NCBI GenBank assembly: GCA_902386025.1
Contig: CABMHR010000001.1
Coordinates: 99,741-163,740 of the forward strand
DNA from: an uncultured archaeon
GTDB lineage: Archaea > Nanobdellota > Nanobdellia > Pacearchaeales > GW2011-AR1
Direction: 5' to 3'
DNA length: 64,000 nucleotides
In this document: one piece after another, positions 637 through 61,728 of the stretch
How the letters are laid out: each line of letters opens with the position of its first letter
Numbering within the stretch: position 1 is the first letter of the stretch
Position numbers and translations under genes: made by a program
The notes under the pieces: model-generated
Told to the model about the DNA's origin: nothing
Seen by the model: the letters and a program-made list of their open reading frames with translations, nothing else
Databases searched by the model: none

Positions 637-1149
637 TTATTTATCATTTCTTGACTCCTTATTATATTTTATTATTCTGGCGGGGTTTCCACAAACAACA
701 GCATTTTCTGGAACATCTTTATTCACAACACTTCCTGCTCCAATCGTGGCATTTTTACCAATTTTTACTCCCTTAAGGATTATTGCATGTGTTCCTATCC
801 ATACCCCATCATTTATTTCTATGGGAGAGTCTATCATATCTTCTTCTCTTGGTCCCAAGGGCATTTTATGATCATTATCATATATTGAAGCGTGCGGACC
901 AATCCCCACATTTTTACCAATCTTAATTTTTTTGCGTGAACTTATTATTGCCCCCGCTCCAATACTTGTCCAATTCCCTATTTCTAAGTTGTAGGGCCTA
1001 TAAATAAAAATATTTTCATAGATTTTTACACCCTTTCCTATTTTTGCTCCAGCAATTTTATAAAATATCTTTCTAAGATTCTTCCCAATTTCCCCCCCAA
1101 TATTCCTCAGGAGAGATGCTCCTATTTGATAAAAAAAGGTATATATCAT
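637..1149 (-). CDS. Hexapeptide-repeat (left-handed beta-helix) O-acyl/acetyltransferase
   Basis: Repeated [LIV]-G-x4 turns (IGKNVGIGPHASI; IGTHAIILKGVKIGKNATIGAGSVV; C-terminal VVCGNPARI), typical of LacA/NodL/WbbJ-type sugar acetyltransferases. Confidence 0.8.
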   Translation of the reverse strand: MIYTFFYQIGASLLRNIGGEIGKNLRKIFYKIAGAKIGKGVKIYENIFIYRPYNLEIGNWTSIGAGAIISSRKKIKIGKNVGIGPHASIYDNDHKMPLGPREEDMIDSPIEINDGVWIGTHAIILKGVKIGKNATIGAGSVVNKDVPENAVVCGNPARIIKYNKESRNDK

Positions 1150-1150
1150 T

Positions 1151-1375
1151 TTATTTAGAACTAATATTTTTAACTAAATCTCCAAATGTGAAAATATCTT
1201 CAGCATTTTTGATAATTACATTAAAATTTGACTCTACTGCCGCAATAAACTGATAAAACCTCACAGAACTATGACTATTCAAATGTTCATTATCCAAAAT
1301 TAAACCATCACCGATTTCTGATTCTTTCATTCCCCAAAATTCAGAGAAAAATCTTATTAATCTTGCTCTTTCCAT
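1151..1375 (-). CDS. Small carrier-protein-like protein (ACP/PCP fold candidate)
   Basis: 74 aa and acidic. LNSHSSVRFYQFIAAVE resembles the D-S-L-x-helix phosphopantetheine site. Lies next to the FkbH/AcpS module. Confidence 0.5.
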   Translation of the reverse strand: MERARLIRFFSEFWGMKESEIGDGLILDNEHLNSHSSVRFYQFIAAVESNFNVIIKNAEDIFTFGDLVKNISSK

Positions 1376-1543
1376 CTACCATCCCTCATGACAAACAGGG
1401 CAGATATAATCTTCAGTGCCGTCTTCTTTAATTATTTTTGTCAGATAATCACAAATTTTTTCTTCTTTTAATCTTTCTAATGTAACAAGACATTTGCAGC
1501 ATCTAATCTTTTTCCCTGATTTTTTGAGCATATTCCCAAACAT
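1376..1543 (-). CDS. 55-aa zinc-ribbon-like mini-protein (below ORF-track cutoff)
   Basis: Hand translation: MFGNMLKKSGKKIRCCKCLVTLERLKEEKICDYLTKIIKEDGTEDYICPVCHEGW. Its TAG stop (1376-1378) directly abuts the ATG of the carrier protein (1375). Paired Cys motifs CCKC ... CPVC. Confidence 0.45.
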   Translation of the reverse strand: MFGNMLKKSGKKIRCCKCLVTLERLKEEKICDYLTKIIKEDGTEDYICPVCHEGW

Positions 1544-26138: not shown

Positions 26139-27851
26139 ATGATGGAAGAAGGGATAGAAAAGAGGAAGTCCAAAATAAGCAAATTTCTCTTTGGATGGGT
26201 TAAAGACAATTACGACAGGATTTTTCTTGCAATACTCTTGGCAGCATTTGCACTAAGATTGTATATTTTCTTTCAGACAATGCATCAGCCATTGTGGTGG
26301 GATGAAGCAGATTATTTATCTGCAGGAAAAAGGTGGGGTTTGAGCCTTGATATAAGAGATATTTGGTATTATAGGAGGGGTTTTTTATTCCCCCTCATAA
26401 GTGCATTATTTTTTAAAACTGGATTAGGGGAGACAGGAATAAGATTTCTTGAAGTTTTATTTTCAACAGGGATTGTTGCTGTTTCCTATGCTTTGATATC
26501 CAAGATGTTCAGCAAGAAACTTGCATTGCTTACTTCCATAGCATTATCTGCATCATGGATAATCTTATTCTTTACAGGAAGAATATTAACCGATATTCCT
26601 GCAGCATTCTTCTTGCTTTTGGCTCTTCTCCTTTTCTGGAAGGGTTATGTCTTGAAAGAAGGAAATAAATTTTTGTATCTCTTCGGTTTTATATTTGTAT
26701 GTGCTGTAATGACAAGAATGCAGTCTCTTATGCTAGCCCCTCCTTTTTTGATTTATATATTTATAAAAGAAAAATTCAAAATGTTTAAGAACAAGCAGTT
26801 ATGGATTACACTGGGAATATTTTTACTCTTGCTGGTTCCTTACTTGATTATATATTCTACGCATTATGGAAATCCTATTGCAGATTTAGCTTCCCACTAT
26901 CTTGGAATAGGCAGTTCTGCTCATCCCGTCTCCTCTGGAAATGTCAGAACTTTTTCAATGGCGACATTCAATTATTTTAAAGATTTGCCCTATATGGTAA
27001 CTACTCCTATACTTATTTTATTAATAATTGGAGCAATTTATTTCCTTAATGATTTGATAATTGGTTTGGACAAAGTGAGAAAAGACGAAATCTTGAGCAA
27101 TAAGCTCTTTGTTGTATTGTGGATTCTTTCTTTGTTCCTGATAATGGGATACATCGGTTCTGTGTCTTATGTTGAACAAAGATACGTAACTGCTGCACTG
27201 CCGTTTTTATTTATGATAGCAGTTTCTCCTCTTATCCTTTTTGAGAAAATAATTTCAAAGTATCTAAAAATAAACAAAAGATTAATCTTTGTCGGGCTGT
27301 TTGTAATTTTAATTGCTATGATGATTCCCAATTTTACATTGACGAAAAATCTTACAGAAAATAAATTATATTCTTATTACTCAATTGAACAGGCAGGAAA
27401 ATTAATCAAGGCAGATTCAAATTCTACAGATATTATTATGTCTACTTCGCTTCCTCAAATTACATATTATTCTGAACGCTCAGTTTATCCATATGAAGTT
27501 CATGAAGACGGAATTAATAAAGGAGACAATTCACTCCTTAAATATTCGGAGGGAGAAAAAGGATTTGAAGAATTTCTCACAGACAAGAAGCCAAAATATT
27601 TAATGACATCTTCTATTTTTGAAGATTATCCAACCTGGATTTTAACACAAGGGCAAAAAGAGGGATATAATTTTATTGTTATGCCTTTTTTCAATTCTTC
27701 GATAGTTTATGATGCAAAAACAAACCAGATGGTCTCTTTGGATTTAAAAGGAGAGATAAAAAAGGAGAATATGACTTTAACATTATTCTTCCCCAAGTCT
27801 GTAGATGAAATAAATGGGGTATTTATCTATAAGGTAGAATATAACAACTAA
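26139..27851 (+). CDS. GT-C fold membrane glycosyltransferase (ArnT/PMT family 39-like)
   Basis: Multi-span hydrophobic N-terminal two-thirds with an early WWDEADY loop motif, followed by a soluble C-terminal domain. Confidence 0.7.
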   Translation: MMEEGIEKRKSKISKFLFGWVKDNYDRIFLAILLAAFALRLYIFFQTMHQPLWWDEADYLSAGKRWGLSLDIRDIWYYRRGFLFPLISALFFKTGLGETGIRFLEVLFSTGIVAVSYALISKMFSKKLALLTSIALSASWIILFFTGRILTDIPAAFFLLLALLLFWKGYVLKEGNKFLYLFGFIFVCAVMTRMQSLMLAPPFLIYIFIKEKFKMFKNKQLWITLGIFLLLLVPYLIIYSTHYGNPIADLASHYLGIGSSAHPVSSGNVRTFSMATFNYFKDLPYMVTTPILILLIIGAIYFLNDLIIGLDKVRKDEILSNKLFVVLWILSLFLIMGYIGSVSYVEQRYVTAALPFLFMIAVSPLILFEKIISKYLKINKRLIFVGLFVILIAMMIPNFTLTKNLTENKLYSYYSIEQAGKLIKADSNSTDIIMSTSLPQITYYSERSVYPYEVHEDGINKGDNSLLKYSEGEKGFEEFLTDKKPKYLMTSSIFEDYPTWILTQGQKEGYNFIVMPFFNSSIVYDAKTNQMVSLDLKGEIKKENMTLTLFFPKSVDEINGVFIYKVEYNN

Positions 27852-27852
27852 A

Positions 27853-28539
27853 ATGAAATTTGAATCAAATTTAGATAAAGGAATTGATTATAATAATGAA
27901 TATCATCTGGCAAAATTTGGAAAATGGCTGAAACATAGGCAAATATATGAATTAAAGGGAAAGGTTGCTAAAAAAAATATTTTTTCTTATTCTTTTGACG
28001 AAAATTCAAGAGTTTTGGAAATTGGCTGTGGCATAGGGCAGATAACCGCTTGGGTTAAGAATAAACATGGATTTGATATAAATAAAGAGTTATATCCCCC
28101 CTTGAAAAAAGAGGGATTTGTGATGCATGATTCTGTTAAAGAGATTCCAAATAATTATTTTGATGAACTTGTAATGTCTATGGTATTAGAACATATTCCA
28201 GAACCGATAAATTTTATTAATTCTCTTAAGGTTAAACTAAAAGAAAACGGAAAAATAAGACTGGCATTGCCTCGTGCATATTATCATAAAATGAAAGATA
28301 TGAATAAATCAGCAGATGGGCATTATTACTGCTGGGGATTCCCAGACATCAATTATCTTCTTAATAGGTGTGGTTTTGAAGTGTTAATCAATAAAAAGTT
28401 TTTTAGGAGGGGGATTGACAGGCTTTTTTTCATTTCAAAGATAAGTTTTCCGCTTTATATGATGATGATACAATTTCTCGGATTTCTGAAGAATGATTTT
28501 GATATAATCATTATTGCTAAAAAAAATAAACAAGTTTAA
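27853..28539 (+). CDS. Class I SAM-dependent methyltransferase
   Basis: VLEIGCGIGQ (motif I), MSMVLEHIPEP. Confidence 0.7.
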   Translation: MKFESNLDKGIDYNNEYHLAKFGKWLKHRQIYELKGKVAKKNIFSYSFDENSRVLEIGCGIGQITAWVKNKHGFDINKELYPPLKKEGFVMHDSVKEIPNNYFDELVMSMVLEHIPEPINFINSLKVKLKENGKIRLALPRAYYHKMKDMNKSADGHYYCWGFPDINYLLNRCGFEVLINKKFFRRGIDRLFFISKISFPLYMMMIQFLGFLKNDFDIIIIAKKNKQV

Positions 28540-29069
28540 ACAGTTTGCTTTGTTTCAAAAGCAAATATCTTTGTAACGCTGAAGAAATTTATTTTCCTCT
28601 TCATTTCAAAGTTCTCTTTTAATATTTTTAGAATTTCATCATAAGAAGTTATATGCTCTTTTGGAACTTCTGTCTTGCCTACAAACTTCCTCATTTTTCT
28701 TGAAATAAAATTTCCTGTGGGTATAGAGACAATAATTTCAAAATTATCATTCATCTTCTTGAAATCTCCAATTATTTTTTTTATTTCGGGAGCAGGGATG
28801 TGTTCAAGGACATCAAGGCAGAATATCTTTGTTGGTTTTACTTTCCTGTAATCTTTTACAAATGTTTTTTCTGGATTTATGTCATATCCTATAATATAAA
28901 ATTTTCTTAATTTATTTTCAAGCCATCCTGCCCCGCATCCAAAATCAAGAATTACATCCTCTTTTTTAAGATGAGCAAGCTTTACTGCAGCATTTACTTT
29001 CTGCCTGAAATATGTCTTTGTCAGCAGATTCTTGCTTTCATAAGTGTTTTCAAGAAGATTATTTTCCAT
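28536..29069 (-). CDS. Class I SAM-dependent methyltransferase
   Basis: ILDFGCGAGW (motif I), CLDVLEHIP. Confidence 0.65.
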   Translation of the reverse strand: MENNLLENTYESKNLLTKTYFRQKVNAAVKLAHLKKEDVILDFGCGAGWLENKLRKFYIIGYDINPEKTFVKDYRKVKPTKIFCLDVLEHIPAPEIKKIIGDFKKMNDNFEIIVSIPTGNFISRKMRKFVGKTEVPKEHITSYDEILKILKENFEMKRKINFFSVTKIFAFETKQTV

Positions 29070-29119
29070 TATGAAAATTCTCCTGAATTTTTATTTGTGC
29101 TGAACTTCTGTTCTGTCAT
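29067..29119 (-). promoter_or_regulatory. Hairpin + TAATG-coupled mini-ORF cassette, copy 1 (upstream of methyltransferase)
   Basis: The coding strand reads ATGACAGAACAGAAGTTCAGCACAAATAAAAATTCAGGAGAATTTTCATAATG. The mini-ORF MTEQKFSTNKNSGEFS (29119..29069) ends in a TAA that shares a base with the methyltransferase ATG. Hairpin at 29074-29091 (AAAATTC/GAATTTT stem). 38 nt are identical to 45817-45854. Confidence 0.5.
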
Positions 29120-29960
29120 TTTTTAGCTTTTCCCTGAATATTTTATTTAATTCAATAACTTTAAGGTTTTTCTTTTTTCCTTCTTCATTAAGAATATAAA
29201 TTCCATTCATTTCCCTGCATTTTGGATTATATCCATGCATAGCTTTGACAGGAATTCTTCCCTGCCAGTAATTTGGCAGTATTAAAACACTAGGATTTGC
29301 AAGAAAAATATAATCTCCGTATCTTTTGTCTTTCCAGTCAATCCATTCCCCGTCCTTTGAATTAAAATTTGGCTTCTCCCCCCAGTATCTTGCGAAGGTT
29401 GAATCAATCATGCAATCTTTTGTTTCAGGAACAGATATTATTTTTTTTATGTCTATCATTCCGTGGTCTGAAAGAATTATGTCAAATTTCAGCTTTGAAA
29501 CTCTTCTGTCTATTTCTCTTATTATTTTTTTTGTCTCTTCGCTTTTTGTTCCATATTTATGGGCAATTTTGTCAATTTCTCCTATGTAAAGATATTCTAC
29601 CCCCCTTATCTTCTCAAACGGCTTTCCTATTTCCGTATCAAATTTATAAAGTTTCTTCAGAGGGATATTTCCTGTTCTGAATAATCTTTTTCTTGACAAT
29701 AATCTCTGCAGATTGATAAGAATTTCAACAGGAAGCCTTCCCATCCATTGAACTTTTTTTGTCCATTTCAAGCGGGAATTTTCTTTCTTGTGGAAAAAAG
29801 CAAGCATATCATTTCCTCCGTAAAAAAAAGTTTTCATTCCTCCCTCAAAACCCAGAGGCATTTCAAGCTCCCCCCATTGAAATTTTTTTGTCAGATGGGA
29901 CAAATAAGGGGCATATTCAAGATACTCCGGCTTGAATGAATCAATCATTATAATCTTCAT
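29091..29960 (-). CDS. Alkaline-phosphatase-superfamily enzyme (nucleotide pyrophosphatase/phosphodiesterase- or phosphotransferase-like)
   Basis: N-terminal IIMIDSFKPEYL and later IILSDHGM resemble the metal-ligand motifs of the AP/NPP superfamily. Confidence 0.5.
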   Translation of the reverse strand: MKIIMIDSFKPEYLEYAPYLSHLTKKFQWGELEMPLGFEGGMKTFFYGGNDMLAFFHKKENSRLKWTKKVQWMGRLPVEILINLQRLLSRKRLFRTGNIPLKKLYKFDTEIGKPFEKIRGVEYLYIGEIDKIAHKYGTKSEETKKIIREIDRRVSKLKFDIILSDHGMIDIKKIISVPETKDCMIDSTFARYWGEKPNFNSKDGEWIDWKDKRYGDYIFLANPSVLILPNYWQGRIPVKAMHGYNPKCREMNGIYILNEEGKKKNLKVIELNKIFREKLKNDRTEVQHK

Positions 29961-31351
29961 TTTTTATTCAATCCTAAAAAAGCAATTCCTGCATTTAAGT
30001 ATATTTTAAATTTCTCAACGTCTCTTATGTTTTTTAATGCTTTGATAAATATCTTTGGCCTGAAATAAAATTCTCTGTATGCTTTCTTCTGCATTTCCAT
30101 CAGGGTTTTCTCATCAAGTTCTCCATGATGAAATATCACATTTCCATAGGCAATATAATCTCTGTAATTCTTTGGGTAAATTTCCCCCTCTTTTTTTATT
30201 ATTTTCCAATAATCTGTGTTTGGGAAGGGAATTGTTATATGAAATGTTGCAGTGTCCAAGTCAAGAGTTTTTGCAAAGTTTATTGTATCCTGCATTGTCC
30301 TCTCATTTTCCCCAAGATTTCCAAACATAAACAGCCCTCTTGTTTCAATTCCAGCCTCTCTGCACCAATTTACTGCCTGCCTGACTTTTTGAAGATTTAT
30401 GCTCTTTTTCATTTTATTTAAAATTTCTTCATTTCCGGATTCTATCCCAAGAGAAACCATGTAGCATCCTGCAAGTTTCATTTTTTTCAGCAAATCAGGA
30501 GTTATTCTGTCAACTCTGATTCCATTGGAGCATCTCCAGCTCATTTTTTTGTTTAACCCTTTTTTTATCATCAAATCGCAGAATTCTTCAACCCTTTCAG
30601 AAAGAAGAGTAAAATTATCGTCGACAAAATCCCAATCTCTCGCCCCCCTTCTGTAAATTTCTTCAACTTCTTTGATAATATTTTCTGGGCTTCTAAATCT
30701 GAATTTTCTCCCGTGAACTAAATGATCTGCACAGAAAATGCACTGGTAAGGGCACCCTCTTGAACTCAAAATGTAATCGCTTGGATTTTGTTTTGCTCCT
30801 GCGCTGAAATATTTTTCCATTGGAAGAAGCTCTCTTGCGGGAAGAGGAAGCTCGTCTAATTTATCATTAAGCTCTCTTTCTGAATTATGGATTATTTTTT
30901 TATTCTTTCTGTATGAAAGCCCTTTTATTTTACTCAAGGTTTTTTTCTGCACAAGTTCAAGCATTGCAAATTCCCCCTCTCCCCTTATAAGATAATCAAA
31001 TCTATCAAATTTTTCCAGAGTTTCTTGAGGCATAGAACTTGCGTGAATTCCTCCAATAACAACTTTTATATTCTTTGGACAGAGTTTTGCTATTTCATAA
31101 GCTTCTTCTATCATGCTTGTAGTTGAAGTTATTCCAACCCAATCAGGAGAATATTCTTTTATGCATCTTTCTATTTGAAAATGATTTAGATTATTTGCAT
31201 TTGCTTCCAATATCTTTACTTCAATGTTGTTATTTTTCAAGACTGAAGCAATATAAGCCAGTCCAAGCGGGGGGAAAATAGGTGTTATTTCCTTCTTTTT
31301 TGCATAAGCATAAATCTGCCGATAATTTGGCTGTATAAGCAATACTCTCAT
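29957..31351 (-). CDS. B12-binding-domain radical SAM enzyme
   Basis: MRVLLIQPNY...PPLGLAYIASVLKNNNIEVKILEAN, SSRGCPYQCIFCADH (CX3CX2C). Confidence 0.8.
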   Translation of the reverse strand: MRVLLIQPNYRQIYAYAKKKEITPIFPPLGLAYIASVLKNNNIEVKILEANANNLNHFQIERCIKEYSPDWVGITSTTSMIEEAYEIAKLCPKNIKVVIGGIHASSMPQETLEKFDRFDYLIRGEGEFAMLELVQKKTLSKIKGLSYRKNKKIIHNSERELNDKLDELPLPARELLPMEKYFSAGAKQNPSDYILSSRGCPYQCIFCADHLVHGRKFRFRSPENIIKEVEEIYRRGARDWDFVDDNFTLLSERVEEFCDLMIKKGLNKKMSWRCSNGIRVDRITPDLLKKMKLAGCYMVSLGIESGNEEILNKMKKSINLQKVRQAVNWCREAGIETRGLFMFGNLGENERTMQDTINFAKTLDLDTATFHITIPFPNTDYWKIIKKEGEIYPKNYRDYIAYGNVIFHHGELDEKTLMEMQKKAYREFYFRPKIFIKALKNIRDVEKFKIYLNAGIAFLGLNKK

Positions 31352-33510: not shown

Positions 33511-34965
33511 CTATTTCACAAAATCCTTCAAATGTCCGAAAACTGCCTTTATCCCCTTAAAATTGAATTTAAAATCATTCCAGCTTCTTATATTCCTTGC
33601 CCTCTGAAAAATATAGGCGGGGGTTAAAAATATTGTATAAATTCTGCTGCAAATTCCTGCAACATCTCTGGCATCAGAGTTTTCTGTTCTCAGAACAGGC
33701 TCTCTCATATCATATCTTTCATATTCTAACGGATTAAATAAAAACCATTTATTCTCTTTTGCCTCTTTCCATAAAGGAGTTCCAGGATAGGGAACAAGAA
33801 CAGTTGCCTGCAGTAAATCAGCTTTTCCGCTTTGCATTAATTTTTTCGCAAGCTGGAATGTCCTCAATGCATCTTCTTTGGTTTCCCAAGGATATCCCAC
33901 TATCATTGTCAAGTGCACAGTAAGTCCTGCTTTCTTCGCCATTCTGCATCCTTCAAATATATCTTTAATTTTTATCCCCTTGTTTAATCTGTCCAATGTT
34001 TTTTGATTTGCACTTTCAAGTCCAAATTTAAGAAGCCTGAATCCTGCTTTTTTCATTAAATCAAATTCTTCTTGATTCAATGCCCCAAATCTCATATTGC
34101 AGGAATATTTTATCTTCCTGCTGTACCCTCTTTTTATCAATCCTTCACATAAATCTTTCAGCCATTTTCCAGTCATCAGGGTTCCAGAATCATCAAAGAT
34201 TTCTTTTGCATTATATTTCTCTATTAATATTCCAATTTCATTTAAAACATTTTCAACACTTCTGACTCTAAAGCAGGGAAATAAAATTGGCCACGCGCAG
34301 AACTTGCATTTTCCCCACCAGCAGTCTCTTCCAGACATAATATAAAAAAAAGGCTTTCCCTGCAAATTATATTCTTTTTCATAAAGCCCCCATTTTGTCA
34401 GCTCTCTGTCAATAAACGGAAGTTCGTCCAGATTATGCTTGAGGATAATTTTTCCTGAATTGATTATTCTGTCATTTTTTCTGTAATATATTCCCTTGGG
34501 GCAGTTTTTGCTTTTTTTCTTAATCCAGCTGCATAATTCCAGAAGACTAAAATCAAAATCCCCCCCGCACAAGACAAAATCTACTTTTGAATTTTTCATG
34601 CTTTCTTCTGGGAATGAAGTTGTGTGATCTCCCAATAATGCTATTTTCATTCTTGGGAATTTTTCTTTTAATGCATTAATAATCTTCCAATGTTGTTTTA
34701 TCACAGGAGTTTTTGTCTCAAAGGCAAATAAATCTGGATTCTCTTTTTCTATTCTTGATAGAAATTCCTTCCAAGAAAGTTTTTCTGCTATTGCATCAAG
34801 CCAGCATACTTCATAATTATTTTTTTTCAAAAGAGTTGCAGCACTTCCAAGTATAACGGGAAACATATAGCTGGGATTTGAAAACCACTGAAACTGCCTG
34901 TTCTGGCTTAGCAGTGCAACTCCTTTTTTTGAGAATGTTGGGGGATATCCTATAATTATTTTCAT
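33511..34965 (-). CDS. B12-binding-domain radical SAM enzyme with atypical CX4CX2C cluster motif
   Basis: The cobalamin-domain-like N-terminus is followed by SGRDCWWGKCKFCAW (Cys215/220/223; 34297-34323). Confidence 0.7.
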   Translation of the reverse strand: MKIIIGYPPTFSKKGVALLSQNRQFQWFSNPSYMFPVILGSAATLLKKNNYEVCWLDAIAEKLSWKEFLSRIEKENPDLFAFETKTPVIKQHWKIINALKEKFPRMKIALLGDHTTSFPEESMKNSKVDFVLCGGDFDFSLLELCSWIKKKSKNCPKGIYYRKNDRIINSGKIILKHNLDELPFIDRELTKWGLYEKEYNLQGKPFFYIMSGRDCWWGKCKFCAWPILFPCFRVRSVENVLNEIGILIEKYNAKEIFDDSGTLMTGKWLKDLCEGLIKRGYSRKIKYSCNMRFGALNQEEFDLMKKAGFRLLKFGLESANQKTLDRLNKGIKIKDIFEGCRMAKKAGLTVHLTMIVGYPWETKEDALRTFQLAKKLMQSGKADLLQATVLVPYPGTPLWKEAKENKWFLFNPLEYERYDMREPVLRTENSDARDVAGICSRIYTIFLTPAYIFQRARNIRSWNDFKFNFKGIKAVFGHLKDFVK

Positions 34966-44681: not shown

Positions 44682-45037
44682 TATAGCATCCTCTCAACTA
44701 ACTTATTTATTTCTTTTCCGTGATTGCCCAAAACTCCTTTCTTAACTCCGAAATGCAGTTTGCTGTCAATCCCTTTTCTTGGGGGATGAAGCCTGAAAAC
44801 TTTTGTCTTTTCCTTGAATTTCTTTCCTCTTGCTTCAATTAATTTTTTATAAGTTTCAGCATCTAATTCTCCGAATGCAACGAAATCTTTTATCTCTTTT
44901 ATCATCCCCATTTCAACAGGAGTTGGCTTATCAAGAACAATGCAGGAATATTTTCTTGTAAGTCCGAGCCTTCTGAATGTTTCTCTGACTTCTTCTCTGA
45001 TTTTTACATCTCCTGAAATTCTTATTATAACTATCAT
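44681..45037 (-). CDS. rpl30: 50S ribosomal protein uL30
   Basis: IVIIRISGDVKIREEVRETFRRLGLTRKYSCIVL. Confidence 0.9.
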   Translation of the reverse strand: MIVIIRISGDVKIREEVRETFRRLGLTRKYSCIVLDKPTPVEMGMIKEIKDFVAFGELDAETYKKLIEARGKKFKEKTKVFRLHPPRKGIDSKLHFGVKKGVLGNHGKEINKLVERML

Positions 45038-45819
45038 TCTTCTTTCTCCTTGTTTGTTTTCTTTAAAGCATCAATTGTCGCTCTTATAAGATTGACAGTT
45101 GTTCCCTTTGTTCCGAATGTCTTGCTGTAAACATCTTTTATTCCTGCAAGTTTCAGAACTTTTTTCATCTCCCCCGCAACTACTAATCCTGTTCCTTGAG
45201 GTGCAGGTATTAATGTTACTCTTACACTTCCTGATTTTCCTGTTATCTTGAATGGAATGCTGTGTTCTTCATTGCAAGCGCAGTCAAAACTTGCGCACGC
45301 TCTTCTTATTTTTATAATTGCTAATTTTGCCTGCCTTATTGATTTGTCTCTTGCAGGAAGAGTTTCTTTTGCATGCCCCATTCCTATTCCAACATGCCCG
45401 TTTCCGTCTCCAACAACTGCAAGCGTTGAGAAAGTAGGAACATTTCCTTCTTTTGTTTTTCTCTGCGTCTGCTTCCACGCTCTTCTTTTTCCTCCCCCGA
45501 ATTTTCCTTTTGACTGCCCTATGAAAAGCAGGTCAGACTGAACATTTATTAGGGAATCAACAATCTGCTCTTCCAAGATTTTCCTTTTTCCTTCGAGAAT
45601 TTCATCTATGTTTTTTATTTTCTTTTCCTTTACTTCTTTTCCAAGTTTTGTTTTTGGAACCCAAGAGGCAAGTTTTGATGCTGCTTCTCTTTCTGCTTCC
45701 TTTTCTCTTTCTGTTCTCTTGTCAACAGCAACCAAATCTTTTCCGATTTCCTTTTCAAGAAGTTCCTGGCTGATTTCTTCAGCTGTTCTCTTGTCAACTT
45801 TTTTTGCTTTCTCTGTCAT
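45034..45819 (-). CDS. rps5: 30S ribosomal protein uS5 (with K/E-rich N-terminal extension)
   Basis: VVGDGNGHVGIGMGHAKE, TLIPAPQGTGLV. Confidence 0.9.
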   Translation of the reverse strand: MTEKAKKVDKRTAEEISQELLEKEIGKDLVAVDKRTEREKEAEREAASKLASWVPKTKLGKEVKEKKIKNIDEILEGKRKILEEQIVDSLINVQSDLLFIGQSKGKFGGGKRRAWKQTQRKTKEGNVPTFSTLAVVGDGNGHVGIGMGHAKETLPARDKSIRQAKLAIIKIRRACASFDCACNEEHSIPFKITGKSGSVRVTLIPAPQGTGLVVAGEMKKVLKLAGIKDVYSKTFGTKGTTVNLIRATIDALKKTNKEKEE

Positions 45820-45872
45820 TATGAAAATTCTCCTGAATTTTTATTTGTGCTGAAATTTCCTATTTCTGTCAT
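45817..45872 (-). promoter_or_regulatory. Hairpin + TAATG-coupled mini-ORF cassette, copy 2 (fills the rpl18-rps5 gap)
   Basis: Mini-ORF MTEIGNFSTNKNSGEFS (45872..45819). Its ATG lies 1 nt after the rpl18 stop and its TAA overlaps the rps5 ATG. Hairpin at 45824-45841. 45817-45854 is identical to 29067-29104. Confidence 0.5.
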
Positions 45873-45873
45873 T

Positions 45874-46368
45874 TTATTTTTTCTCTATGCTTGATTTAAT
45901 TTCCTTGAATGTTTTTGAAAAGTCCTTCTTCATATTTTTCCCGCTTATTCTGTCTTCATCTGGGAAATTTTCTTCTGGACATTTTATCTTGACACCAGCG
46001 TCGTTGATTCCCTTGAGGAATGCAAATGCCTTGTTCTTGCTGATAGCTCTTATCATTCCAATATCTGCTATTGGGGCTTTTAGCTTCTTGCCGATAATTT
46101 CTTTTCCGAGCAGGAATCCTGTAAGGTATGATGCAGGGACTGATTTCAGGCTTCCGCTGAATTCATCAGGCCAACCGTATTTTTTCAGATTCTTTGAAGT
46201 TATTCCAATTTCAATCTTGTCCTGCGCTTCTCTGCTAGACACATATTGGGCTATTATGTATTTGTTGGTTTTTCTGAATACAATTCTTGGAGATTCGCCT
46301 TTAAGAAGCTTGAATCTTCTGGCATAATCTGTCTTGCTTTCTCTTCGTCTTCGTTTGTCTATTTTCAT
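45874..46368 (-). CDS. rpl18: 50S ribosomal protein uL18
   Basis: RRRRESKTDYARRFKLLKG...PRIVFRKTNKYIIAQ. Confidence 0.9.
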   Translation of the reverse strand: MKIDKRRRRESKTDYARRFKLLKGESPRIVFRKTNKYIIAQYVSSREAQDKIEIGITSKNLKKYGWPDEFSGSLKSVPASYLTGFLLGKEIIGKKLKAPIADIGMIRAISKNKAFAFLKGINDAGVKIKCPEENFPDEDRISGKNMKKDFSKTFKEIKSSIEKK

Positions 46369-51686: not shown

Positions 51687-51980
51687 TTAGTCAATCGACT
51701 CTGGGTTAAATCCAAGCTTCACAAGGACTTCTTTTATCTTTTTCCTGTGATCTCCCTGAAGTTCTACCTCGCTGTCTCTGTAAGTTCCGCCGCACGCAAG
51801 CTCGTTTTTAAGGGCTTTTGCGACTTCTTTCACATCGACTCCACTTAGTCCGCTGACAATAGTGACATATTTGCCGTATCTTTTCTTCTCGGCAGTCACT
51901 TTGATATTCTGCGAACCCTTAGCGATTTTTTCACACACGCAGGCTTGTTTTGGAAGCCCGCACTTTGGACATATTTCCAT
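51687..51980 (-). CDS. Translation initiation factor aSUI1 (aIF1)
   Basis: N-terminal Zn-knuckle CPKCGLPKQACVC, then KYVTIVSGL...ELACGGTYRDSEVELQGDHRKKI (SUI1 fold signature). Confidence 0.85.
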   Translation of the reverse strand: MEICPKCGLPKQACVCEKIAKGSQNIKVTAEKKRYGKYVTIVSGLSGVDVKEVAKALKNELACGGTYRDSEVELQGDHRKKIKEVLVKLGFNPESID

Positions 51981-52039
51981 TATGAAATTTGTTCTGCAAA
52001 TTTTATTTGTGTTGAACGAATTTTAATGAGTTCTGTCAT
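51978..52039 (-). promoter_or_regulatory. Hairpin + TAATG-coupled mini-ORF cassette, copy 3 (diverged; fills the rpl29-aSUI1 gap)
   Basis: Mini-ORF MTELIKIRSTQIKFAEQIS (52039..51980). Its ATG lies 2 nt after the rpl29 stop and its TAA overlaps the aSUI1 ATG. The hairpin at 51985-52003 (AAATTTG/CAAATTT) keeps pairing through two compensatory changes relative to copies 1 and 2. Confidence 0.5.
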
Positions 52040-52937: not shown

Positions 52938-53525
52938 TTACTTTTTCTCCTTGTGTTTTTTCTTTATTTTATTTTTCTCCACAGCTTTTATGTGAATGTG
53001 AGTTCTTTTTCTTTTTATTCTGCCAAATCTCCCGTATGGGCGTGATGCTCTGTTCGGAACAGCTTCTGTGATTATCGGCTCTTCCATATTGTTCATATTT
53101 GCATTTGCTTTCAGGGATTTAAGCATCTGAATGAAAAATCCAACTGGCTTTGTCATATATCTTCCAGACATCATTCCCTTCCCTTTTCTGTGGGGAATTT
53201 CTCCTGTCATTGGAATTGCTTTTTTTAATTTTTCAACTTCTTCCAAATCTGAAATTGCCTTGTCTATTGATTTTCTTTTTATGAATTTGCAGATCGCAAC
53301 AGAATCTTTTGTTGATATAGGAAGAGATATTCCGTTTACAACAGATTCATCTCTCTTTACTTTTGGAATTATTTTTCTCTCTTTCTTTCCATTCTTATTT
53401 TCTTCTGCCTTTGCTTCTTTCTTTTCTTCCTTTTTCATTTCAGCTCCGTCTATCTTTTCAACATTCTTCTGTTTTTCCATTACTTTGTTTTCTCTCTGTT
53501 TTGCGTTGTAATCTTTTTCTGTCAT
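52938..53525 (-). CDS. rpl22: 50S ribosomal protein uL22 (with K/E-rich N-terminal extension)
   Basis: GISLPISTKDSVAICKFIKRKSIDKAISDLEEV. Confidence 0.9.
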   Translation of the reverse strand: MTEKDYNAKQRENKVMEKQKNVEKIDGAEMKKEEKKEAKAEENKNGKKERKIIPKVKRDESVVNGISLPISTKDSVAICKFIKRKSIDKAISDLEEVEKLKKAIPMTGEIPHRKGKGMMSGRYMTKPVGFFIQMLKSLKANANMNNMEEPIITEAVPNRASRPYGRFGRIKRKRTHIHIKAVEKNKIKKKHKEKK

Positions 53526-53526
53526 T

Positions 53527-57054: not shown

Positions 57055-57219
57055 ATGGGGAGAATAGTTACAAAATACTGCTGGATTGGAGTTCCTTCTG
57101 TCATTTTTGGAGCAGTTCTCTTTGCAATAAACCCCTTTAGTTTCTTATCTGGATTGTTTTTTGCAATAGGCGGGACAATAATTACATTGAACTTATTAGG
57201 GCGATTGAAGAAGTGGTGA
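57055..57219 (+). CDS. Possible 54-aa two-TM mini-protein (below ORF-track cutoff)
   Basis: Hand translation: MGRIVTKYCWIGVPSVIFGAVLFAINPFSFLSGLFFAIGGTIITLNLLGRLKKW. Two hydrophobic helices. No other support. Confidence 0.3.
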   Translation: MGRIVTKYCWIGVPSVIFGAVLFAINPFSFLSGLFFAIGGTIITLNLLGRLKKW

Positions 57220-61648: not shown

Positions 61649-61728
61649 GCCTCCGTGGCACAATGGTACTGCACTCGCCTTGAGAGCGAGGCCTTTACGG
61701 CTTCCAGGTTCGATTCCTGGCGGGGGCG
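61649..61728 (+). tRNA. tRNA-Ser (anticodon UGA), long variable arm, no encoded CCA
   Basis: Hand-folded cloverleaf. Acceptor GCCTCCG/CGGGGGC (one G-U pair). Anticodon stem CTCGC/GCGAG with loop CTTGAGA. Variable arm GCC-TTTAC-GGC. T-arm CCAGG-TTCGATT-CCTGG. Discriminator G. Confidence 0.85.

Follow-up and report, generated by a model that had tools for sequence, protein, structure and literature searches.

Here we describe a short repeated cassette at the start codons of genes in an uncultured archaeon of the Pacearchaeales (lineage GW2011-AR1). It was recognized in a 64,000-nt stretch of DNA (assembly GCA_902386025.1, contig CABMHR010000001.1, positions 99,741 to 163,740 of the forward strand), the whole of which we call the window. 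The cassette stands directly in front of a gene, folds into two hairpins, and contains a small open reading frame (mini-ORF) that in most copies ends exactly on the start codon of that gene. Judged from its sequence, it is probably a translationally transparent start-codon cassette, which ribosomes would pass by a relay of termination and reinitiation; of the explanations considered, this is the best.

A repeat shared by two gene starts

An earlier sequence-only reading of the window had pointed out an exact 38-nt repeat, CATTATGAAAATTCTCCTGAATTTTTATTTGTGCTGAA, at positions 29067 to 29104 and 45817 to 45854 (plus-strand letters). The repeat is real: with up to three mismatches allowed, the window holds two matches, as against 0.00 expected from 100 dinucleotide-preserving shuffles, and the census of the full assembly that had been proposed (558,684 bases in four contigs, 86% complete) returned the same two sites only, at the same tolerance. 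Both copies extend past the 38-mer, as had also been said, continuing on the plus strand into TTCTGTCAT. Read on the minus strand, both run to ...TTCAGCACAAATAAAAATTCAGGAGAATTTTCATAATG, whose final ATG is the start codon of a gene, and at both starts a GGAG Shine-Dalgarno motif is followed by ten bases and then the ATG. Upstream, the two copies reach back to ATGACAGAA, so that the units measure 53 and 56 nt, the 38-mer being the 3' two-thirds of the cassette.

Copy 1 precedes a methyltransferase gene with its ATG at 29069, just as the earlier reading had it. The TAA of its mini-ORF (29069 to 29071) overlaps this start codon as TAATG, while its GGAG motif (29080 to 29083) falls within the loop and first stem pair of hairpin 2. 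The upstream alkaline-phosphatase-family gene ends inside the copy, contributing its last 10 codons and stop (29091 to 29093), and its frame differs from that of the mini-ORF, again in agreement with what had been noted. In copy 2, which precedes the gene for ribosomal protein S5, the mini-ORF is MTEIGNFSTNKNSGEFS, and its stop overlaps the S5 ATG (45817 to 45819) as TAATG. A third, diverged copy in the window retains hairpin 2 through compensatory changes (AAAUUUG/CAAAUUU), and its mini-ORF is open to TAATG.

The cassette is typical of one archaeal genus

We searched related genomes with a covariance model (R1) that comprises the two hairpins and was built from 13 copies. Counted at E < 0.1, about 120 matches were found in 14 of the 17 genomes of the genus, with 0 to 20 per genome; the three that have none are G002, G005 and G006. 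Copy 1 is the top match (82.7 bits, E = 1e-18), and significant copies in its genome comprise the three in the window plus two elsewhere in the assembly. Outside the genus, 60 other genera of the family were covered; 5 have matches, and one among these has eight copies, some of them in tandem. The 38-mer itself (zero to three mismatches) is present in half of the other species-level genomes of the genus (8/16), always before different genes, and in none of the 44 genomes sampled outside it. In addition, the exact 33-mer CACAAATAAAAATTCAGGAGAATTTTCATAATG occurs 59 times on 54 contigs from many unrelated metagenomes, three-unit tandem arrays included. The cassette is thus characteristic of a single genus among DPANN archaea of the Pacearchaeota/Woesearchaeota type, relatives in which have been deposited as Candidatus Pacearchaeota, Woesearchaeota or Nanoarchaeota metagenome-assembled genomes. 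Hainich groundwater and lake sediments are among the sources of these archaea. Identity of the S5 protein within this genus is only 72 to 87%, so that neutral intergenic DNA should be saturated with changes between its species.

Cassettes are 50 to 62 nt long, with long forms of 92 to 101 nt. Two or three may form head-to-tail arrays in which the closing ATG of each unit opens the next, and at one gene on a metagenome contig (L207) an older copy has a copy of the type of window copies 1 and 2 (type A) nested behind its 3' end. Against Rfam, the window at gathering thresholds matched only a tRNA at 61649 to 61728, and permissive scans of the cassette regions gave chance-level matches only (E > 0.8). 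The repeat had been thought to link a glycan locus, around copy 1, to the ribosomal operon around copy 2. This does not hold, each locus hosting one member of a family dispersed in the genus.

Full copies stand strictly at start codons

Among 90 aligned R1 matches, 77 run from ATG to ATG and are here called full copies. All 77 are co-oriented with a start codon and abut it, none being reversed or placed in 3' intergenic DNA, and the 59 metagenome copies all behave likewise. An ORF of at least 50 amino acids follows in 68 of the 77, and the remainder are mostly followed by a tandem cassette. The sequence-only reading had named, as one possible refutation, that the 38-mer is part of an ordinary repeat family of larger size whose members bear no relation to gene starts; the larger family exists, but its members stand strictly at starts.

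The genes behind the cassette are diverse and mostly of housekeeping type. They encode RNA polymerase subunits, SecY, tRNA synthetases, gyrase and the ribosomal proteins S3Ae, L22, L2, S9, S19, L7Ae and S5, and there are unrelated ones too, such as genes for methyltransferases, a phage-type metallopeptidase and pilus proteins. At the other end of the cassette, a long co-oriented upstream ORF stops within -7 to +4 nt of the first ATG in 40 of the 77 copies, as against 4% of control ATGs from the same loci. Typical junctions at the first ATG are TAAAATG or ATGA, and a GGAG-type motif lies upstream of it in 26 copies. The first ATG looks like the original start of the gene. The cassette mimics generic junction motifs both where it opens, with (TAA)AATGA (5' end), and where it closes, with GGAG-N9/10-ATG (3' end).

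The motif of the 5' end, AATGACAGAA, occurs five times in the window (0.34 expected) and 14 times in the genome; window sites include 53517 to 53526, 57096 to 57105 and 45811 to 45819, all on the minus strand. Cases outside cassettes are mostly true gene starts (M-T-E...). The S5 gene opens with ATGACAGAG, and its cassette-free orthologues open with ATGACAGAA. The motif may be a favoured start that gave rise to the 5' end of the cassette, or it may serve as microhomology for insertion and excision.

Two covarying hairpins and near-invariant single strands

The order of parts is ATG-A, hairpin 1, CACAAATA, hairpin 2 with GGAG in its loop, and CATA-ATG; as a consensus, ATG-A, hairpin 1, CAC-AAATA(A/C), hairpin 2, (G)CATA, ATG. 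Hairpin 1 comes in variants such as CAGAA/UUCAG, GCAAA/UUUGC, GAAAAA/UUUUUC and UUGAAAU/AUUUCAA. Hairpin 2 is found as AAAAUUC-AGGA-GAAUUUU, CAAAAC-AGGA-GUUUUG or CAAAACC-AAGGA-GGUUUUG, with GGAG placed in the loop plus the first pair. In an alignment of 87 distinct copies (A3), which was fitted to the model, standard pairs fill 95.6% of the pair cells, as against 76.1% after column shuffles and at most 65% with slid partners, and 9 of the 12 pairs have changed on both sides. For hairpin 2, 98.6% of the cells are paired, and double changes are seen in five of seven pairs. A hand-made alignment of 13 copies gave the same covariation picture. The mismatches in hairpin 2 are seven G-U and three A-C, numbers too small to tell RNA from DNA. 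Near-invariant single-stranded segments are AUGA, CACAAAUA, the AGGAG loop and CAUAAUG.

Long variants carry one or two extra covarying hairpins between hairpin 1 and CACAAATA (TCGTT/AACGA, TCATT/AATGA, CCGCA/TGCGG), and in all but one of them the mini-ORF stays open to TAATG over 29 to 32 codons. ARAGORN found no tRNA-like or tmRNA element in the long variants. We also discarded a C/D-box small RNA, since by inspection of both strands the C/D and C'/D' boxes lack the required spacing of about 12 nt, and a match to SNORD42, which scored 18 bits against a cutoff of 39 bits (E = 2.7).

Covarying hairpins combined with near-invariant single strands are typical of functional RNAs and speak for the possibility that the cassette is above all a cis-regulatory RNA leader: a site bound by a protein or small RNA, a thermosensor or a processing site. 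Diverse genes, mostly of translation and transcription, would then share one control, and the cassette would have spread adaptively and not selfishly. The enrichment of downstream genes for ribosomal proteins, RNA polymerase, SecY and tRNA synthetases would suit such a role, although housekeeping genes are a large share of a 0.56-Mb genome anyway, and the cassette also precedes unrelated genes. As read from the sequence, the 5' CAGAA would have two possible partners, UUCAG motifs of which one abuts the Shine-Dalgarno motif. However, orthologous genes carry the cassette in some species only, without sign of constraint, occupied orthologous sites hold unrelated variants, and no Rfam family matches even at permissive thresholds. 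A regulatory leader seems unlikely to us.

An open frame is kept without a conserved peptide

The unit length is 2 modulo 3 in 61 of the 77 full copies, and in 59 the mini-ORF is open and ends exactly at TAATG. In six further copies, another open frame crosses the cassette and has its stop no more than 2 nt from the ATG. For two of these six, the orthologues of the methyltransferase locus in genomes G008 and G003, the crossing frame is that of the upstream Phosphodiest gene itself: the mini-ORF is broken or out of frame, and Phosphodiest stops at the ATG or 2 nt before it. In these two genomes the relay appears to be preserved by a different route, read-through from Phosphodiest. Counted over the 77 full copies, frame 0 is free of stops in 72, and the other two frames in 1 and 31.

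The peptide, by comparison, varies. Copies in which the CACAAATA block falls in phase 0, 1 or 2 number 11, 21 and 18, and the peptides that they yield are unrelated (...FSTNKNSGEFS, ...SAQIQNQGGFA and ...CHKYKTGGFA). Since this conserved block occurs in all phases while the frame stays open, it is structure and translatability, and not the peptide, that selection acts on. What is kept is a path that ribosomes can read from the first ATG to UAAUG, with no particular peptide. The suggestion that selection works at the RNA level rather than on a peptide gains support from these phases and from the covariation of the two hairpins, and on the phase analysis a conserved micropeptide was rejected. 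We similarly considered a bulge-helix-bulge mRNA intron, to be taken out by the splicing endonuclease, since pairing of AUGA with UCAU is possible, and rejected it because a conserved reading frame speaks for translation of the cassette and against its excision.

Three other explanations bear on these data, namely an assembly artefact, a family of small-peptide genes and an archaeal promoter module, and even taken together they are highly improbable. A peptide family is suggested by the 15- to 17-amino-acid peptide ending in G-x-F-A/S that most copies encode, but the conserved nucleotides give unrelated peptides in the three phases. An artefact could arise if a repeat common to two loci misled the assembler. 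Here, however, the cassette of 53 to 56 nt is shorter than usual reads, and an assembly chimera is unlikely because related species, assembled independently, show the same flanking gene pairs side by side (phosphodiesterase-methyltransferase and L18-S5) and because the cassette is also present in the 54 contigs from many other metagenomes. As for a promoter, an A/T-rich block (AAATAAAAAT) does lie about 20 to 27 nt before the ATG. The archaeal TATA box is positioned near -26/-27. Centred at about -21 to -24, the A-rich block would be too close for a leaderless start at this ATG and is followed by a canonical Shine-Dalgarno motif, and on these grounds we rejected a promoter of leaderless mRNA.

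Cassettes come and go at orthologous sites

Comparison of related species for presence or absence of the cassette revealed both filled and empty orthologous sites. In most relatives the L18-S5 junction is free of the cassette, and stop and start overlap or abut there (TAATG, ATGA). The genome of the window (G000) carries a cassette at this junction, and its closest relative, G007 (S5 identity 87%), carries a very different three-hairpin variant. This insert of about 72 nt (locus L018 on contig G007:C120) ends with AAAATCAGGAGATTTTACATAATG, and its hairpin 2 is one base shorter in each arm, a compensatory double deletion. At the methyltransferase site, G000, G008 and G003 each have a variant of their own; G004 and G007 have no cassette there, and their upstream ORF extends across the start as ATGGAAAATAA. 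These empty sites would fit insertion at the ATG.

Global comparison of the copies points in the same direction. Pairs at orthologous sites of different species (n = 12) have a mean identity of 0.73, the same as random inter-genome pairs, and none reaches 0.90. Among non-orthologous inter-genome pairs, 102 reach 0.90 and 11 reach 0.95, with near-identical copies preceding unrelated genes in different species. Where an occupied orthologous site exists elsewhere (21 copies), the orthologous copy is never the best foreign match (0/21). As orthologous copies are no more alike than random ones and near-identical copies stand at non-orthologous sites, copies turn over. The copying proposed by the sequence-only reading is borne out to the extent that cassettes are gained and lost at start codons.

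The two copies in the window probably did not derive from one another. The S5 copy is identical over 56/56 positions to a copy before S14 in G014 and one base away from one that precedes L7Ae in G004; for the methyltransferase copy, copies in G010 are two differences away; and the two window copies are five apart. Since each has a closer relative in another species, their 38-nt identity does not imply that one locus was copied from the other, and they are two members of one widespread subfamily.

A proposed relay of termination and reinitiation

The relay that we favour starts from the position of the cassette: each copy lies precisely between an 'old' ATG and that of the gene behind it, as though insertion at the start codon had duplicated the ATG. 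The start codon that the cassette supplies takes the place of the original one, in most cases directly at the upstream stop (TAAAATG, ATGA) or behind the original ribosome-binding site. Ribosomes arriving from the upstream gene or from the old start would translate the open mini-ORF of 15 to 32 codons, be carried through the cassette and melt hairpin 2. They would then terminate on UAAUG and reinitiate on the real gene, aided by the cassette's own Shine-Dalgarno motif, GGAG, displayed in the small hairpin loop 9 to 10 nt before the gene's ATG. By virtue of this relay, the insert would be translationally transparent even before essential genes. There are precedents: termination-reinitiation at stop/start overlaps is established in Haloferax and E. 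coli (PMC6728339), and the bicistronic design works through the helicase activity of the ribosome (PMC6302717). We infer both coupling in vivo and mechanistic mobility, and recombination at stop/start and Shine-Dalgarno-ATG junction motifs might be one route of spread.

Several points weigh against the relay or against the mobility that goes with it. About 12 of the 77 mini-ORFs close early or run 7 to 42 nt into the gene, so the relay need not be exact at TAATG. The ATG of the copy 1 mini-ORF falls within the upstream gene, out of frame with it, and is not preceded by a good Shine-Dalgarno motif; what happens at this locus may be reinitiation by ribosomes that have reached the stop of the upstream gene itself, 21 nt ahead of the methyltransferase ATG. 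Coupling decays gradually over 30 to 40 nt (PMC12548453), a range that includes this stop, so that the methyltransferase could be fed by either route. The relay model assigns no role to hairpin 1 or to the invariant single-stranded linker CACAAAUA(A/C). The fit of the 87-copy alignment to the model must also be borne in mind, and so must the shared descent of copies, through which the counts overstate the independent evidence. Finally, the Y1 transposase domain (PF01797) was found in none of five genomes searched, including those with 16 to 20 copies, and TnpB (PF07282) gave only sub-threshold zinc-ribbon matches in the five; positive controls matched in both searches. These genomes are 82 to 88% complete, and a partner may be missing for this reason.

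How the cassette might spread

Another rival is a miniature transposon acting at the DNA level, such as a MITE (miniature inverted-repeat transposable element) or a palindrome-associated transposable element (PATE). Its transposase would be supplied in trans, its hairpins would be recognition sites, and the features of the mini-ORF would be what selection leaves after random insertion. Presence and absence at orthologous sites, near-identical copies at unrelated sites across species, tandem and nested copies, a patchy occurrence in other genera and hairpins near both ends of the element all speak for it. The ends of IS200/IS605 elements resemble each other. In the cassette, by contrast, hairpin 1 (CAGAA.../...UUCAG) is unrelated to hairpin 2, and the ends are inverted with respect to each other only as ATG/CAT. 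The strict co-orientation of all full copies at start codons likewise tells against such a transposon, as do the lack of Y1 and of above-threshold TnpB in the five genomes, the presence of a reverse transcriptase in only one of them, and the lack of a copy in IMG/VR viral contigs. We consider a miniature transposon quite improbable, and an IS200/IS605 PATE in particular was rejected because no transposase was found in the five genomes and the hairpins are dissimilar. PATEs and MITEs derived from IS200/IS605, as well as repetitive extragenic palindromic (REP) sequences and bacterial interspersed mosaic elements (BIMEs), do resemble the cassette as small, non-coding, dispersed, strain-variable hairpin repeats. 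The cassette differs from them in its dissimilar hairpins, its strict co-oriented position at start codons and the conservation of a translated frame, and no Y1 or TnpB was found with it.

The one reverse transcriptase (RVT_1; G010:C1:48478-49160, minus strand) is interrupted by a TAA and could be part of a diversity-generating retroelement or a decayed gene; such retroelements are known from other DPANN archaea. With a reverse transcriptase in only one of five genomes, retro-mobility was set aside. The same applies to a viral vector, as two cassette patterns had no match in IMG/VR viral contigs.

More tentatively, the cassette could be a 'natural bicistronic design', a portable module for translation initiation in DPANN archaea that spreads by itself, is exchanged horizontally, needs no conventional transposase to target start codons, and has been partly domesticated instead of being purely selfish. 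We regard this as possible rather than probable. In the domesticated part of the proposal, the host would gain a translation of the gene behind the cassette that is independent of context.

Comparison with known translationally coupled elements

One of the two closest parallels is with mycobacterial interspersed repetitive units (MIRUs; Supply et al. 1997, in PMC12548453). As described there, MIRUs stand at start codons, contain a coupled mini-ORF, form tandem arrays comparable to those of L068 and L173, and likewise have no known transposase. The cassette shares with them the position at start codons, an internal ORF coupled at both ends and variation in presence and copy number, and the layout of its tandem copies is like that of MIRU tandem repeats (variable number tandem repeats). 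There are differences as well. MIRU hosts are bacteria, GC-rich Mycobacterium, whereas those of the cassette are DPANN archaea; the MIRU coupling spacing is -4 nt (ATGA), whereas the 3' junction of the cassette is at -1 (TAATG) and its 5' junction often ATGA or TAAAATG; and, unlike the MIRU as described, the cassette brings its Shine-Dalgarno motif in a covarying hairpin, together with a second hairpin. Homology is very unlikely in view of the host (an archaeon with 33% G+C) and the unit sequence. We would file the cassette as an analogue of MIRUs, not as a member.

The same layout, element by element, in which a short leader cistron encloses the ribosome-binding site of the gene, has been engineered in the synthetic bicistronic design (BCD; Mutalik et al. 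2013, PMC6302717), where according to the account given the helicase activity of the translating ribosome frees the second ribosome-binding site (RBS2). The BCD of that account is engineered, non-mobile and bacterial, whereas the natural cassette, known from sequence, adds two hairpins and a linker, all of them conserved. Similarly, the ATGA and TGATG/TAATG overlaps of gene pairs couple strictly in Haloferax volcanii and E. coli (2019, PMC6728339). The cassette has such junctions at both ends, but those overlaps join ordinary protein genes, and the cassette is a repeated, portable, non-protein 'adapter' ORF.

Full-text searches of the literature found no description of the archaeal cassette, and it would appear to be an undescribed archaeal repeat of the MIRU/BCD-like kind, inserting at start codons and translationally coupled. 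If so, ultra-small archaeal genomes tolerate, and may use, a repeat at the starts of essential genes (ribosomal proteins, RNA polymerase, SecY); what would allow this is its construction along the lines of the bicistronic design, which synthetic biologists devised for reliable translation. The mycobacterial MIRUs, themselves poorly understood, would gain a first counterpart in archaea, and archaeal termination-reinitiation a compact, testable system. The cassette also raises the question of how a 53-nt element without a visible transposase finds start codons and moves between species. In addition, the spacers of otherwise fixed DPANN ribosomal operons, and the 16-amino-acid ORFs called there, would be better annotated as a repeat than as genes.

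Features of the cassette loci and their surroundings

Table 1. Cassette copies of the window with their parts and adjacent genes, followed by long variants, read-through loci and tandem arrays at other loci.
Feature	Locus	Position	Strand	Details
Cassette copy 1	window	29067..29119	-	53 nt, subfamily A: ATGACAGAACAGAAGTTCAGCACAAATAAAAATTCAGGAGAATTTTCATAATG; ATG 29067-29069 is the methyltransferase start
Mini-ORF, copy 1	window	29069..29119	-	16 codons plus stop, MTEQKFSTNKNSGEFS
Hairpin 1, copy 1	window	29100..29115	-	pairs C-G, G-C, A-U, A-U, C-G; loop AGAA; minimum-free-energy fold
Hairpin 2, copy 1	window	29074..29091	-	AAAAUUC-AGGA-GAAUUUU; minimum-free-energy fold
Methyltransferase gene downstream of copy 1	window	28536..29069	-	177 amino acids, S-adenosylmethionine (SAM)-dependent, Methyltransf_23
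Phosphodiest / alkaline-phosphatase-superfamily gene upstream of copy 1	window	29091..29960	-	289 amino acids
Cassette copy 2	window	45817..45872	-	56 nt, subfamily A, L18-S5 spacer; 81.5 bits
Ribosomal protein S5 gene downstream of copy 2	window	45034..45819	-	
Ribosomal protein L18 gene upstream of copy 2	window	45874..46368	-	stop TAA 1 nt before cassette ATG
Cassette copy 3	window	51978..52039	-	62 nt, diverged; before aSUI1 gene (51687-51980); 57.8 bits
Long variant	L005	1501-1598	-	
Long variant	L011	1941-2038	+	
Long variant	L015	1944-2038	+	
Long variant	L082	1042-1142	+	
Long variant	L058	1501-1598	-	
Long variant	L103	1025-1116	-	
Read-through locus	L088 (G008:C32)	1077-1131	-	
Read-through locus	L100 (G003:C1)	1008-1059	-	
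Tandem array	L068 (G003:C3:2600-5100)	1078-1407	-	
Tandem array	L069	1014-1116	+	
Tandem array	L101	1039-1143	+	
Tandem array	L173	2892-3030	+	
Tandem array	G095:C8	18551-18739		

One further, weak R1 match in the window (34431 to 34475, minus strand; 21.6 bits, E = 0.004) reads AATGACAGAATAATCAATTCAGG...CATAATC and has neither hairpin 2 nor the terminal ATG. It is a doubtful case, either a decayed relic or chance.

The surroundings of copy 1 (26139 to 31351) form a glycan-type locus. On its plus strand, genes for a PMT_2 mannosyltransferase-like protein and a Methyltransf_23 protein converge on a minus-strand run that consists of a B12-binding radical SAM gene, Phosphodiest and Methyltransf_23.

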